This document shows positions 1-21,250 of a stretch of 21,250 nucleotides of DNA, one piece after another. Numbering within the stretch: the stretch's first letter is position 1; each line of letters starts with the position of its first letter. The stretch lies in the IMG/VR virus record IMGVR_UViG_2609459795_000004. One strand, given 5' to 3'. A program made the position numbers and the translations under genes. This DNA is from a virus (lineage: Duplodnaviria > Heunggongvirae > Uroviricota > Caudoviricetes). The notes under the pieces were generated by a model. The model had not been told where the DNA came from. It made no database searches and saw only the letters and a program-made list of their open reading frames with translations.

Positions 1-167
1 CCGTACTCAACGTCCATGCTGTAACGCCCGGCTTCATCCGGATTTTCTGAGGCCAGCGTGTTCACCACCACCGTGGTGCTGTTACGTTTTGCTTTCAGCT
101 GGATTGTGCAGTTCTGTACCGGTTTTCCTGTGCCGTCTTTCAGTACACCTGAAATCTTTACTGCCAT
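1..167 (-). CDS. stf: Side tail fibre protein Stf, first 55 codons only (gene runs off the window start)
   Basis: Minus-strand ATG at 165-167 with an open frame to position 1. My translation MAVKISGVLKDGTGKPVQNCTIQLKAKRNSTTVVVNTLASENPDEAGRYSMDVEY matches the N-terminus of lambda Stf (orf-401) as I recall it. It lies just downstream of lom, as in lambda. Absent from the ORF track because it has no stop in the window. Confidence 0.75.
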   Translation of the reverse strand, partial: MAVKISGVLKDGTGKPVQNCTIQLKAKRNSTTVVVNTLASENPDEAGRYSMDVEY

Positions 168-177
168 ATTCACCCCA

Positions 178-204
178 CAAAAAAGCCCGCCTGAACCGGC
201 GGGC
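178..204 (-). terminator. Rho-independent terminator downstream of lom
   Basis: Top strand has A-run 178-184, then GCCCGCC (185-191), loop TGAACC, GGCGGGC (198-204). On the minus strand this is a 7-bp GC stem followed by a U7 tract, 28 nt after the lom stop. Confidence 0.7.
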
Positions 205-231
205 TGTCATAACACTGTGTTACCTGGCTAA

Positions 232-831
232 TCAGAATTTATAACCGACACCCACGATGAAACCGTCAGTGCGCCAGTCACCACTGCCGGAGCCTTCATA
301 AGCAATATCAATGGCCACGGATTCGGTCGGGTTAAACTGCACGCCAGCCCCCCACGCCAGAGACGTGTTGCTGTGGCGACCGTCATCACTTCCGGTCAGC
401 ACATCGTGCTTTTTCCCCTTGTTGTCAGTTACGCGAAGATAATCCCCGGAGAAAGTCGACACACGGCTGTAAGCCACACCCGCCATCGCATACGCGCTGA
501 ACCATTCATTTACGCGCACAGACGGCCCCGCCATTACGCTGAACCAGCGGTTACGAACGGAATCTTCATGCCAGCGGGTATCGCTGTAACGGGTCAGCTG
601 GCGATTCTTGTCTCCTGCATAGCTGAATGACGTCACCAGCCCCAGTGTGTCCGTAAACTCATAACGGTATTTCACGTTAATCCCGTTCAGATCATCACTG
701 CCGGGGACGTTCGTCGAGGCATGAAGATACCCCGCGCTCAGCGTGGACTGATGTTCAGACGCCCATGCAGGCGCACCGGATACGGCCAGACAAATGGCTG
801 CGGACAAAATTGCTGCACAAACTTTACGCAT
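232..831 (-). CDS. lom: Lom outer-membrane protein (Ail/Lom family beta-barrel)
   Basis: 199-aa ORF with ATG at 829-831 and an upstream GAGG ribosome-binding site. N-terminal signal peptide MRKVCAAILSAAICLAVSGAPAWA, and the protein ends in the aromatic residue typical of outer-membrane beta-barrels (...GVGYKF). Sits between J and stf as in lambda. Confidence 0.88.
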   Translation of the reverse strand: MRKVCAAILSAAICLAVSGAPAWASEHQSTLSAGYLHASTNVPGSDDLNGINVKYRYEFTDTLGLVTSFSYAGDKNRQLTRYSDTRWHEDSVRNRWFSVMAGPSVRVNEWFSAYAMAGVAYSRVSTFSGDYLRVTDNKGKKHDVLTGSDDGRHSNTSLAWGAGVQFNPTESVAIDIAYEGSGSGDWRTDGFIVGVGYKF

Positions 832-855
832 AATTACCTCTCGCTTTTCTGCAAT

Positions 856-879
856 AAAAAAGGCGTCATTCCTGACGCC
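856..879 (-). terminator. Rho-independent terminator downstream of J
   Basis: Top strand A-run 856-861, GGCGTCA (862-868), loop TTCC, TGACGCC (873-879). On the minus strand this is a stem-loop followed by a U6 tract, 23 nt after the J stop and 24 nt before the lom start codon. Confidence 0.65.
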
Positions 880-901
880 CTTTATTGGGGTTATAAATAT
901 T

Positions 902-3900
902 TCAACGAATACTGATGCCGGAAGCGGCTTTTTTGGTCACAATCACCGTACAGTCGGTGATATTGCCTGCCCCCTGATTGCCTTTCTGGAAAATCTTAAA
1001 CTCCAGAGTGACGCTTCCCCTGCCACTCGGCATATCAATAACTGCACTGTAACTACCGGGAATGGCCCCTTTAGTTTCTCTGGATGCGATTAATACGCCG
1101 TTTTTGCGAACTTCAAAACCATAACCCGTGTATCGCGTGCCTCCCGGGTTATTTCCGCTCCCCGGATCGTCATACGCTATACCGTTAAAAATAATGGGCG
1201 GAATAATAATCTGGCGGTCAAAGTTATGATCATCGCTGATGGTGACTGTAACCGTACCGTTTGGTGTTTCCGTGTTACCCCACGTACCGACTTTTTTCGG
1301 GAAGGCTTTTGATACAGCTTTAACGAAATCTCCTCTGACCTGGGTCGCCTCCAGCATGCCCTTAATCGTACAGTTCTGGTTAATCGTGACATTGTTGAGC
1401 GTTCCTGAGTTCGCATTCACACTGCCACTGATATCCGCATTTTTCGCCGTCAGTCTCCCGTCTGATGTCAGGGAAAATGCCGGAGGATTACCGCCGCTGG
1501 TAATGGTGGGGGCCGTCAGGCGTTTCAGGAACACTTCATTCATGAATATCTGATCGCCCTGACCAACAAACATCGGTTTTGTGTTGCCATTTGCAGGATT
1601 AATCATCGCAATCCTGTCTGCCGCCAGCAGCACCTGACTCTGCATGCCGTCGGGGGTGTTCTCAATACCGACACCGATACCCGCAATATAAAGGCGTCCG
1701 TCCTGCATCTGCTGCAGCTTCACAGCCCACATGCTGTTCAGATTATTATTTGTATCAACCTGAACCTTCTGTATCTGCTGAATTGCCGCACTCTGGTCTT
1801 CCAGTTTCTTATTGACGGTCTGCGTGATTTCATTGCTGACATCCTTAATGGACGTCCTGATTTCAGCCAGGTCAGGCGCAAGCTGACCGTTATCAATCTG
1901 CGTCCACAGCTCCTGAGCCAGATGGGTTTTCCCTATCTCGCCTTTGAAAAAATCCAGATAGCCGGATGCATCATCACTCGGCTGACCAACAGCCTCCACG
2001 AATGCCGATTTGCCAACGGTGTTCACACTGCGAACGTAAAAATAATAATCATAGCCCGGCCTGATATTGATACTGGCGGCTATCCAGTACAGCCCCGTGC
2101 CAAGGTAGCGGGCTGTGGTTTCAACCTGCCTGATATCGGTAATCCGCTTTTCCGAGAACCAGAACTCAAACTGTACCGTCGGGTCATAAACGGCAAGATG
2201 CGGCGTGGCGGTTATCTGAAAATAGCCCGGCGTCAGCTCAATCCTCGACGGTGCTGCCGGTGCGGCAATCCGGAACGATACCGACGCCGGATCTCCCTGC
2301 TGCCCCCACGCATTTACCGCCCGGACTGTCAGCCTGTAGTTCCCCAGCGCCAGTTGCGTGAAGCGGTATGTGGTTTCCGTCGTCCGGGCCGTGCTGACCA
2401 GCCGCTCACTGCCGTCGTCCGCTGTTACGGTCAGACGGAGCAGGAAGCTCACGCCCTTCACCACCTTCGGTGTGTCCCAGCGCGCCAGCACCTGATATTC
2501 CCCGCTGTCTGCAGTGACTTCTGCGGTCAGGTGCTGCACCGCTGGCGGCGTGACACCGTTCACCGTGCCACTCTGTTCGCCGTCAAAGTGCGCCCCGTTA
2601 TCCACGATGGCCTCTTTTTCCGGCACATGCTGCACGGCGGTGATGGCATACGTACCGTCATCGTTCTCACGGATACTCACACAGCGGAACAGGCGCTGGC
2701 GCAGCGTCGGCAGCTTCAGCCCCCACACGCTGTATTCGGCAACGCCGTCAGGAACACGGCTCACTTTCACCTTAAGTCCGTCGGTGACGGACTGAACCTC
2801 CACGCTGACCGGATTACCACTTCCGTCAACCAGGCTTATCAGCGTGGTACCGGAGGATGGCAGCGTGATTTCACGGTCGAGCGTCAGCGTCCGGGTCTGG
2901 CTGTTCACCGCCAGCACGCGACCACCGGTGCTGATACCGGCATAGTCATCATCGCAGATTTCAATGACATCGCCCGGTACATGGCGAAGCCCTTCAGCAC
3001 CCACGCTGAAATCCACGGTCTGCGTCTCCAGCAGTTCCGTTTTAATCAGCCACAGCCCGGCGCGGTGTGCCTGCCCCCGGCTGGTACAGCCAAAGGCATC
3101 CATCTTCGTGACATTACGACCGTAACGGGCAATGGCCTGCGTATCTTCAACAAGCTCTGTCGCCGTCTCCCAGCCGTTGTCCGGGTCAATCCAGTTCACC
3201 TCAACGGCATTATGGCGGTCCTTCAGGGCGCTGAAGCTGTAGCGGAACGGCGCGCCATCATCCGGCATCACCACATTACTGCGGTTATAGGTCCACACCT
3301 TATCCGACGGTCGGTCCTGCACGAACGTCAGCGTCTGCCAGTTCCATACCGGCATACAGCGCATCGCCGAGCAGAAATCACTGAGCACATCCCACGCCTT
3401 GCGCTGTGTGGTCAGGTACGCATTACAGGTGATGCGCGGCTCCGTGCCGCCAAAGCCGTCCGGCACTGACTGGTCGCAGTACTGGCCGATGACATACAGC
3501 GCCCATTTGTCCACATCCGCCGCACCAAGACGTTTCCCCATGCCGTAGCGTGGATGGGTCAGCATATCCCACAGACACCAGGCCATGTTATTGCTGTATG
3601 CTGGCTTAAACGTTCCGTCCCAGATACCGCTGTATTGCCGAGTCTGCGGGTTATAGTTCGACGGCACCTGCAGAATACGCCCGCGCAGATGATAATTACG
3701 GCTCACCTGCTGGCTGCCGAACTGCTCCGAATCCACCTGTACGCCGACCAGTGCCGTGTTCGGGTAGCACTGTTTCACATCGATGATTTCGGTGTATGAC
3801 GACCAGAGCGTTTTGTTCTGCAGCTGGTCTGTGGTGCTGTCCGGCGTCATCCTGCGCATCCGGATATTGAACGGGCGCGGCGGCAGGTTACCCACCACCA

Positions 3901-4399
3901 CCGATGCTAGATACTGTGAGGTGGTTTTGCCTTTAATGGTGATGTCTTTTTCCGTCACCCAGCCACCATTACGCTGTATCTGAACCAGCAGGCGGACTTC
4001 CGACGGATTCCGGTCCCCCTTTGAGGTGGTTTCCACCAGTGCCTGCACACCGAAGGTAAAGCGCAGACGGTCGATGTTTGCCGACGTGATGGTCCGGGTA
4101 ATCGGCGTGTCGTACTTCACTTCCGTACCCAGCACCGTCTCGGAGCCGGAGGATTCAAATCCCTCCGGCGGTGTCTGCTCCTGCTCACCGGCCCGGAACA
4201 CCACCGTGACGCCGGATATATTGGTATTCCCCTCACTGTCCAGCACCGGCGTACTGTTCAGCAGCACGCTTTTTAATCCATCCACCGGACCTTCAACCGG
4301 CCCTTCGCTGATGGCATCGATCACACTCAGCAGCTGCGTGGACTTCAGGTTGTCCTTCGCTTCGCGCGGGGTATGCCCCTTACTGCTGCCTTTACCCAT
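902..4399 (-). CDS. J: Tail tip / central tail fibre protein J (host-specificity protein), 1165 aa
   Basis: ATG at 4397-4399 with an upstream GGAG. The N-terminal two thirds ([34 protein letters not shown]...) match lambda gpJ as I recall it. The C-terminal third differs and the protein is 1165 aa against about 1132 aa in lambda. Confidence 0.9.
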
Positions 4400-19689: not shown

Positions 19690-19857
19690 CACGGACAAAA
19701 ACAGAGAAAGGAAACGACAGAGGCCCAAAAGCTCGCTTTCAGCACCTGTCGTTTCCTTTCTTTTCAGAGGGTATTTTAAATAAAAACATTAAGTTATGAC
19801 GAAGAAGAACGGAAACGCCTTAAACCGGAAAATTTTCATAAATAGCGAAAACCCGCG
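19690..19857 (-). other. cosB, the terminase (gpNu1) binding region with R1, R2 and R3 elements and an intervening AT-rich IHF-type site
   Basis: Three copies of the GGAAACG core sit in the arrangement I recall for lambda R1/R2/R3: AAAGGAAACGACAG (about 19709-19722), its inverse CTGTCGTTTCCTTT (about 19746-19759), and CGGAAACGCC (about 19810-19819). An AT-rich block at about 19775-19800 lies between R2 and R3. The region is the reverse complement of the lambda left-end sequence as I recall it. Confidence 0.8.
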
Positions 19858-19869
19858 AGGTCGCCGCCC
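19858..19869. other. cosN, the 12-nt cohesive-end sequence (terminase nicking site) at the junction of the mature-genome left and right ends
   Basis: Top strand AGGTCGCCGCCC is the reverse complement of GGGCGGCGACCT, the lambda cohesive end. The flanking 19870-19900 (CGTAACCTGTCGGATCGCCGGAAAGGACCCG) is the reverse complement of the lambda right-end terminus as I recall it, which should include cosQ. Confidence 0.85.
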
Positions 19870-20068
19870 CGTAACCTGTCGGATCGCCGGAAAGGACCCG
19901 CAAAATGATAATAATTATCATCTACATGTCACAACGTGCATCTACGCCATCAAACCACGTCAAATAATCAATTATGACGCAGGTATCGTATTAATTGATC
20001 TGCATCAACTTAACGTAAAAACAACTTCAGACAATACAAATCAGTGACACTGAATACAGGGCAACCTC

Positions 20069-20302
20069 ATGTCAACGAAGAACAGAACCCGCAGAACAAC
20101 AACCCGCAACATCCGCTTTCCTAACCAAATGATTGAACAAATTAACATCGCTCTTGATCAAAAAGGGTCCGGGAATTTCTCAGCCTGGGTCATTGAAGCC
20201 TGCCGCCGGAGACTGTGCTCAGAAAAAAGAGTTTCTCCTGAAGCAAACAAAGAAAAGAGTGACATTACTGAATTGCTCAGAAAACAGGTCAGACCAGATT
20301 GA
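20069..20302 (+). CDS. Small basic hypothetical protein (77 aa), possibly a ribbon-helix-helix DNA-binding protein; accessory ORF just right of cos
   Basis: ATG at 20069-20071 with a 77-codon frame. The N-terminus is Arg/Thr-rich (MSTKNRTRRTTTRNIRFPNQMIEQINIALDQKGSGNFSAWVIEACRRRL), with a pattern of a short strand then two helices that suggests an Arc/CopG-like fold. The fold is my inference from the sequence. Weak ribosome-binding site. Confidence 0.5.
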   Translation: MSTKNRTRRTTTRNIRFPNQMIEQINIALDQKGSGNFSAWVIEACRRRLCSEKRVSPEANKEKSDITELLRKQVRPD

Positions 20303-20359
20303 AGCAATTTAGATAATCGTGCAGACTACGCCCCATCATATCACATGGAAGGTACTACA

Positions 20360-20770
20360 ATGGCTCAGGTTGCCATTTTTAAACAAATATTCGATAAAGT
20401 GCGAAATAATTTAAACTATCACTGGTTTTATTCTGAACTAAAACGTCACAATGTCTCACATTACATTTACTATTTAGCCACAGAGAATATTCATCTTGTT
20501 CTTGAAAACGATAATACGGTTTTAATAAAAGGACAGGGTAAGGTTGTAAATGTAAGATTTTCAAAAAATAAATGCCTTATAGAAGCCACCTTAAAAGGAT
20601 TCAAATCAGGAGAGTTATCATTTTACGAATACAGGAAAAATCTTGCTACAGCAGGGGTTTTCAGATGGATTACAAATATCCACGAAAACAAAAGGTATTA
20701 CTATACCTTTGATAATTCATTACTATTTACTGAGAACATTCAGAACACTACACAAATATTTCCGCACTAA
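20360..20770 (+). CDS. AT-rich hypothetical protein (136 aa), resembling the YbcV-type small prophage proteins found near the packaging genes of lambdoid prophages; function unknown
   Basis: ATG at 20360-20362 preceded by GGAAGG with a 7-nt spacer; the track's start at 20345 lacks a ribosome-binding site. The gene is visibly AT-rich and stands out from the GC-rich structural module. [45 protein letters not shown]... resembles E. coli DLP12 YbcV as I recall it. No signal peptide or transmembrane segment. Confidence 0.6.
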
Positions 20771-20848
20771 ATCATAACGTCCGGTTTCTTCCGCGCCAGA
20801 ACCGGACTCGCTGGCATGATGAAATATGTGTACTCGGTAACCCCGGTG

Positions 20849-21250
20849 GTAAGCGTAAAGCCAATGCCGTCTGTAACACCTGCTCCTTGCAGACTAAATT
20901 AGAGCTCCTTCTAAATTAGACGGAGTTCTATTGATGGATAAACCTACAGACTGGCGCTCCGGAACCCGCCGGATATTTTCTAATGAATTTAAACTTCATA
21001 TGGTTGAACTGGCTTCGAAACCAAATGCCAATGTTGCACAACTGGCCCGGGAACATGGCGTTGATAACAACCTGATTTTTAAATGGCTACGCCTCTGGCA
21101 AAGAGAAGGACGTATTTCTCGTAGAATGCCTCCAACTATTGTAGGCCCTACAGTATCACAATCTTTTCCGACCTCTCCGACTCTGGTTCCAGTGGAACTT
21201 ATCGACACCCCGCGCTGTGCTACAGATGCTCCTGCTCCGGAGGCATTATC
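20849..21250 (+). mobile_element. Probable insertion sequence (IS66-family-like), left end only, truncated by the window edge
   Basis: GTAAGCG at 20849-20855 matches the typical start of IS66-family terminal inverted repeats. About 85 bp downstream an ORF begins with an N-terminal helix-turn-helix of the kind found in IS accessory (OrfA/TnpA) proteins. The sharp boundary immediately after the phage accessory gene fits an insertion. Family assignment is from memory. Confidence 0.55.
20934..21250 (+). CDS. IS accessory protein (TnpA/OrfA-like, helix-turn-helix), 3'-truncated by the window end
   Basis: ATG at 20934-20936 and an open frame to the window end (105 codons, no stop): MDKPTDWRSGTRRIFSNEFKLHMVELASKPNANVAQLAREHGVDNNLIFKWLRLWQREGRISRR.... 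The pattern RxFSxEFK ... VAxLARxHGV ... LxxWxR is the N-terminal HTH signature of IS transposase OrfA proteins. Absent from the ORF track because it has no stop in the window. Confidence 0.6.
   Translation, partial: MDKPTDWRSGTRRIFSNEFKLHMVELASKPNANVAQLAREHGVDNNLIFKWLRLWQREGRISRRMPPTIVGPTVSQSFPTSPTLVPVELIDTPRCATDAPAPEAL

Follow-up and report, generated by a model that had tools for sequence, protein, structure and literature searches.

A mosaic tail-tip protein J with a phage 434-type receptor-binding domain in a lambda-family phage or prophage

Gene J and its surroundings

The window analysed here is a stretch of 21,250 nucleotides from a virus of the Caudoviricetes (IMG/VR record IMGVR_UViG_2609459795_000004). 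The longest open reading frame (ORF) in its left part is gene J, assigned from the ORF list and the translation, which encodes a tail-tip attachment or host-specificity protein of 1165 amino acids plus the stop codon (902..4399, minus strand). All six Pfam families of the lambda gpJ domain set are present and in order, each above its curated cut-off: FNIII-A_GpJ (J residues 86-207), the hub family Phage-tail_3 (330-498), Ig_J (610-714), Ig_J_second (716-818), Phage_Tail_Tip (872-1000) and Ig_GpJ_C (1029-1164; E=4e-25). The protein thus belongs with lambda gpJ (Tal/host-specificity protein J).

By ORF order, judged against the annotated regions of PhiR42_1, mEp332 and lambda, J closes the tail operon, with H, M, L, K and I ahead of it and lom and stf behind it, as in lambda. 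The lambda-type late operon upstream of J is complete (Nu1, A, W, B, C/Nu3, D, E, FI, FII, Z, U, V, G, T, H, M, L, K and I), and the window has an ORF to match each late gene from Nu1 to J. The window is the late operon (Nu1 to stf) of a lambda-family phage or prophage, and over its whole 21 kb it shares 96-98% DNA identity with Kati, PhiR42_1, PhiR49_1 and mEp332. Between J and lom, on the coding (minus) strand, lies a terminator-like hairpin followed by a T-run (862..879; GGCGTCAGGAATGACGCC TTTTTTATT). The scanner reports this hairpin on the plus strand only, and the record for phage 434 has a terminator annotated at the equivalent position. The lom gene itself (232..831, minus strand) encodes an Ail/Lom outer-membrane protein of 199 amino acids (Pfam Ail_Lom, E=1e-122) and is an allele of the 434 type.

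Lambda J (NC_001416) has 1132 amino acids and ends in ...VQVMVIKKQALGISVV. The window protein is longer by exactly 33 residues, which agrees with the approximate figure given by an earlier, sequence-only reading of this DNA. Of these additional residues, 28 lie in the alpha-helical shaft and a net five in the receptor-binding domain, and the gain of five is exactly that seen in 434 J, a protein of 1137 amino acids.

The gene is common. Full-length matches (100% of its length, 94.8-97.3% nucleotide identity) occur in mEp332, Kati, PhiR34_1, PhiR42_1, PhiR68_2, phiSTEC1575-Stx2k, ev243, ev099, vB_EcoS-569R4, cdtI, Ayreon and phi458. The 1099 nucleotides at the 3' end of J are found, at a coverage of at least 80%, in 1164 of the 5426 complete E. 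coli genomes, whose annotations call the product gpJ or host specificity protein J. Among these genomes, the closest match to this 3' 1.1 kb is 99.2% identical, and no record is identical. The J protein of mEp332 has the same allele combination, with 98.9% identity over 1165 amino acids, a tip that is 100% identical, and scattered point differences only. The allele combination is therefore already known, being common and present in named phages, and modular exchange of its specificity region has been published.

These relatives also bear on whether the divergent end of the protein, described below, could be that of a decayed, non-functional J in a defective prophage. Many database homologues are indeed partial proteins from fragmented assemblies, as such decay might suggest. 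However, the ORF examined here is intact, all of its gpJ domains exceed the Pfam cut-offs, and the window holds ORFs for all late genes from Nu1 to J. Moreover, this J recurs at 95-99% identity in phages that have been isolated. Given the intact ORF and these isolates, we reject the notion of a defective prophage gene, the probability of which we consider negligible.

Segments of J and the extent of the divergent DNA

Segment identities were taken from a four-way MAFFT alignment of the J proteins of the window, lambda, 434 and mEp332. The N-terminal part (residues 1-814; 1958..4399, minus strand), which holds the hub domains and two FNIII/Ig domains, aligns with lambda J without gaps and is identical at 794 of 814 positions (97.5%). 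It also aligns gap-free with 434 J (98.2% identity) and is 98.6% identical to that of mEp332. The sequence-only reading had described about the first 800 residues as essentially lambda gpJ, and for this structural part the description is accurate. At the nucleotide level, the gene matches lambda at 98-100% identity as far as J nucleotide ~2250 and at 84-90% beyond, within the N-terminal part.

The first strong breakpoint relative to lambda falls at window position ~1955, and from the motif at F817 (window ~1951) onward the protein differs from lambda. The first divergent segment corresponds by position to an alpha-helical shaft module (residues 815-889; 1733..1957, minus strand), which is 98.7% identical to that of mEp332. 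It is only 38% identical to lambda and 40% to 434, as counted over 47 aligned positions, and is longer than either by 28 residues. It fills the interval between the Pfam domains Ig_J_second and Phage_Tail_Tip, which is the position of the AHS of Ge & Wang 2024. In that cryo-EM study, the order of gpJ elements is hub, FNIII-1, FNIII-2, alpha-helical shaft, beta-prism central straight fibre and receptor-binding domain (Ge & Wang 2024, PMC11101478). MAFFT puts the 28 residues that lambda and 434 lack at residues ~836-866 (1802..1894, minus strand), a placement that is approximate and depends on the alignment. When the region was compared with the lambda gpJ structures by phmmer, query residues 36-65 (J residues 836-865) were left unaligned.

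The upper central straight fibre (residues 890-942; 1574..1732, minus strand) is 58.5% identical to both lambda and 434, and 98.1% identical to mEp332. It is followed by a conserved linker in the lower fibre (residues 943-1002; 1394..1573, minus strand), where identity rises to 90% with lambda, 90% with 434 and 100% with mEp332, and which is strongly conserved in 26 aligned homologues. The protein ends in a receptor-binding domain of the phage 434 type (residues 1003-1165; 905..1393, minus strand), which is 42.8% identical to lambda, 96.9% to 434 and 100% to mEp332.

Over residues 834-1165, 53.6% of the aligned positions are identical to lambda, and the alignment has 45 gap columns. The earlier proposal that roughly the last 330 residues differ from lambda is thereby upheld, and the lambda C-terminus on which it drew is the correct one. 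Near-identity to lambda J over the full length, the observation that had been named as fatal to the proposal, is not what the alignment gives, as identity falls after residue 814. The proposal of a replaced receptor-binding C-terminus holds for the tip, but not for a single block of ~330 residues. As judged by alignment, the divergent C-terminus is instead two exchanged modules (residues 815-942 and 1003-1165) on either side of the 90% identical linker. The two modules differ in their closest relatives, with the shaft and upper fibre being unlike 434, which resembles lambda there, and the tip being of the 434 type. The linker is likely to be the recombination joint between them.

Although divergence is found throughout much of the J gene segment originally singled out (902-1900), the limits of the replaced DNA lie outside it. 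The breakpoint at ~1955 is about 55 nucleotides beyond one end, and at the other end the block replaced relative to lambda reaches below 902 into lom. Positions 1-1500 of the window align with 434 in a single alignment at 96.5% identity, which takes in the last part of J, the intergenic hairpin with its T-run at the site of the 434 terminator, the lom allele and the start of stf. In contrast, lambda homology is essentially missing from window position ~1345 to ~359, save for one 59-nucleotide match inside lom, and resumes from ~359 downward. Within positions 1-1500, lambda thus matches only the conserved linker, the 59-nucleotide piece of lom and the DNA from ~359 downward. The first two thirds or so of lom are non-homologous between lambda and the window at the DNA level.

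The 3' third of J is also lower in GC, as had been noted, with values falling from ~0.60 to ~0.50. The further suggestion that this fall fits a mosaic junction does not hold. The drop begins at J nucleotide ~2160 (residue ~720, window ~2240), a point at which identity to lambda is still 100% and at which GC falls in lambda and 434 too. From J nucleotide 2250 to its end, the gene has a GC of 0.498 here, compared with 0.502 for 434 and 0.534 for lambda. Because lambda and 434 drop alike where all three sequences are identical, we rejected the GC drop as a junction marker. It is a common property of the J 3' third in this phage group.

The receptor-binding tip and its probable receptor

The tip is identical to that of 434 J (OL657226) at 158 of 163 positions, with no gaps, the same length and the same pattern of indels relative to lambda. 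The five substitutions, written from window to 434, are N1047D, R1127G, I1136V, Q1138H and G1143R, and DNA identity to 434 is 98-100% over J nucleotides ~2970-3240. Sliding windows seemed to show identity to 434 and mEp332 falling off at the extreme end of J, but this was caused by gap columns, as direct alignment gives five differences from 434 in the tip and none from mEp332. By sequence and by indel pattern, the tip is a member of the 434-type (h434) class of receptor-binding domains. It does not conform to the LamB-type specificity region of lambda (residues 960-1132), from which it is separated by a tip identity of 42.8% and by indels at or near lambda residues 1012, 1043-1049, 1077 and 1107. 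Correlated indels at 1012, 1048-1049, 1077-1078 and 1107 are known to define lineages of J (Maddamsetti et al. 2018). The indels between the window and lambda fall at or near all four of these sites, according to our own residue count on the alignment.

When lambda is given J, the tail-fibre gene, from 434, it binds OmpC, as 434 itself does, and specificity is set by the C-terminus of gpJ (Ge & Wang 2024, PMC11101478). The classical hybrid lambda h434 imm21 has been sequenced (Feiss et al. 2022), and we compared it with both of its parents. The hybrid J matches lambda without any difference up to nucleotide ~2100 and differs hardly at all from 434 after nucleotide 2200. Of the 294 positions at which it departs from lambda, 275 fall within nucleotides 2800-3414. 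Given this concentration at the 3' end of J, the h434 host-range allele corresponds to the J C-terminus that the window shares at 97% amino acid identity. The hybrid also holds 434 DNA downstream of J, and host-range mapping from the hybrid alone is consequently not exclusive to J.

Since the tip is 96.9% identical to that of 434, and since 434 and lambda h434 use OmpC, the window protein most likely binds the porin OmpC and not LamB. The earlier expectation of a receptor other than LamB thus gains support from the 434-type tip, which further points to OmpC as the candidate. Two phages with an identical tip, mEp332 and PhiR34_1, list K-12 MG1655 as their host, and this suggests that the J type is functional on a strain with K-12 OmpC. 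In the literature, we found no adsorption or receptor-knockout data on phages whose J is exactly this one, and no receptor assignment for mEp332, the PhiR phages or Kati.

It is conceivable, though in our estimation unlikely, that the five substitutions shift this 434-like tip to other OmpC variants or to another porin such as OmpF, either in place of K-12 OmpC or in addition to it. Of the substitutions relative to 434, three (I1136V, Q1138H and G1143R) cluster opposite lambda residues ~1097-1104, adjoining the specificity-critical residue 1107, which is one of two that are critical for gaining the use of OmpF. One to four substitutions can be enough for lambda and phi21 to gain an additional porin (Maddamsetti et al. 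2018, among other sources), and a single substitution opens OmpC to phi21. Furthermore, the two natural OmpC-targeting tips A8 and 1A2 do not accept the same subset of 23 OmpC variants (Brödel et al. 2024). Nonetheless, the near-identity of the window tip to that of 434 is unbroken by indels, the MG1655 host listing of the phages with an identical tip is as expected for a 434-like OmpC user, and no specific alternative receptor is indicated.

The nearest solved structures to the window protein are those of lambda gpJ and of the OmpC-targeting A8 gpJ chimera. Lambda gpJ (8IYK, 8XCK, 8XCJ), whose receptor is LamB, shares with the window both the gene neighbourhood and the order of domains, namely hub, two FNIII domains, helical shaft, beta-prism fibre and Ig-like tip. 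The A8 chimera (Brödel et al. 2024; PDB 9wca/9wcb) belongs to the same fold family, targets OmpC and has its exchange point in the conserved linker. However, its tip is 45% identical to the window's, and the solved chimera carries the short lambda shaft. The A8 tip sequence used for this comparison was taken from PDB 9wca.

With an OmpC-type tip of this kind, infection might proceed largely as described for lambda. The trimeric tip would bind OmpC instead of LamB, as in 434 and lambda h434. The signal after binding would be expected to follow the lambda scheme, in which tip opening is followed by fibre twist, shaft flipping and hub opening.

Assortment of shafts and tips

The best 120 database homologues of the last 365 J residues, many of them partial and derived from fragmented assemblies, were scored by segment. 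The combination found in the window, a long shaft with a 434-type tip, recurs in P0002-P0021 among others, and P0007 alone stands for 2965 member sequences. The long shaft is also joined to tips that are 97-100% identical to the A8 gpJ of PDB 9wca (P0099, P0103 and P0106, the last with a tip 100% identical to A8), so that an A8-type tip occurs naturally on a shaft of the window type. Further tips accompany the long shaft in P0001, P0093 and P0100. Conversely, the exact window tip is found on a short lambda/434 shaft in P0074, and a third shaft allele (~60% identical) is combined with 434-type tips in P0046-P0070. The upper fibre mostly co-varies with the shaft among the surveyed alleles, with the exception of P0058/P0059, in which the shaft is 56% and the upper fibre 92% identical. 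From these sequences, shaft and tip modules are seen to assort independently in nature.

This pattern is in keeping with published work. The specificity region of J (lambda residues 960-1132) circulates as an independent evolutionary module, as established from 1207 natural J homologues that include cdtI and Ayreon (Maddamsetti et al. 2018). Engineered gpJ chimeras have been fused at lambda residue 964, which is inside the conserved linker stretch (Brödel et al. 2024).

One pairing is missing. When an artificial fusion protein made of the long shaft and the lambda tip was used as query, no natural J of this type was found in the phage collection, and the best full-length matches (75.6%) were lambda and its derivatives, which have the short shaft. 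We do not take the missing combination as a sign of co-adaptation, because the short shaft works with both tips and because lambda-type tips are mostly those of laboratory derivatives.

An alternative reading takes the longer shaft and upper fibre as the key functional novelty of this protein. They could alter the reach of the fibre past O-antigen or capsule, or the threshold at which ejection is triggered, and could be co-adapted to tips of the OmpC type. The module is a distinct allele with 28 additional residues, located in the element that in lambda flips, and in part refolds, once the receptor is bound. The long shaft also pairs with 434-type, A8-type and other tips, and no phage record joins it to the LamB-type tip of lambda. 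However, the 434-type tip, including the exact window allele, also resides on the short shaft in 434 and P0074, which makes any coupling non-obligatory, and the missing lambda pairing may be a sampling effect given the predominance of laboratory lambda derivatives among records with that tip.

Structure prediction lends little to this idea. A crude scan of a/d heptad positions in the shaft gave no clear continuous coiled-coil register, and with no convincing register we dropped the claim that the insertion adds four extra heptads. An AlphaFold2 monomer model of residues 713-1165, built from a 26-sequence alignment, has a mean pLDDT of 47.7, a value too low to support a fold search and as expected for an intertwined trimer. 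The model has helices at residues ~811-887, with low confidence (pLDDT <50) in this region, and only the beta-rich tip reaches pLDDT values of 55-86. On balance, we think it improbable that the shaft and upper fibre are the principal novelty. Slightly more doubtful still is the particular version in which residues 815-942 form a separately exchangeable length or trigger module whose pairing with OmpC-type tips (434-type and A8-type), as opposed to the LamB-type tip, reflects co-adaptation, be it for reach through polysaccharide or for the mechanical threshold of tail opening on a smaller porin.

The data are explained well, and in our judgment probably correctly, by a natural mosaic J that comprises lambda-like residues 1-814, a longer allele of the shaft and upper fibre, the conserved linker and a 434-type tip predicted to bind OmpC. 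Such a mosaic may have arisen through homologous recombination in conserved stretches, for example that of residues 943-1002. The window J adds one more case to those already published in which the specificity region of J is exchanged as a module. The phage or prophage can be annotated as a probable user of OmpC rather than of LamB, an assignment that bears on its host range, on superinfection, on routes to resistance and on the choice of gpJ parts for engineered lambda delivery particles.

A 434-like block spanning the J tip and lom

A single unbroken 434-like block within window 1-1500 takes in the tip of J, the putative intergenic terminator and approximately two thirds of lom, counted from the start of that gene. 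This block resembles the corresponding part of phage 434 and differs from that of lambda, with homology to lambda returning only from window ~359 downward. The lom gene (window 232-831, minus strand) is a 434-type allele that encodes a protein of 199 aa, whereas the lambda protein has 206 aa.

Between J and lom lies a GC-rich hairpin (window 862-879) that reads AATAAAGGGCGTCAGGAATGACGCCTTTTTTATT on the minus strand and is flanked on both sides by T-runs. The hairpin looks like a bidirectional intrinsic terminator, and a terminator is annotated at the equivalent position in phage 434. The start of stf, the side tail fibre gene, is located at window 1-166 on the minus strand and begins MAVKISGVLKDGTGKPVQNCTIQLKAKRNSTTVVV. 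Only this 5' part is present, as the reading continues past the left edge of the window. The gene is intact in Ur-lambda and frameshifted in laboratory lambda.

Additional observations on J

Several database homologues of the J C-terminus, including the proteins P0024 and P0025, are annotated as fusions in which the partner is an unrelated Pfam domain (terminase, portal, tape measure or ABC transporter). These annotations are probably mis-assemblies or gene-calling artefacts from fragmented prophage contigs.

A 515-aa ORF runs antisense to J within its GC-rich part (window 1922-3469, plus strand). The ORF has no Pfam match and most probably arises from codon bias rather than being a gene.

Plus-strand ORFs near cos

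Beyond Nu1 and cos, small ORFs occupy the plus strand (window 19796-21250). Matches to the window end at ~20808-20848 or at ~20231 in most related phages. Two of the ORFs, one with DUF3950 (window 20069-20302) and one for a DUF1398/YbcV-like protein (window 20345-20770), are oriented opposite to the late operon and resemble cargo genes near cos.
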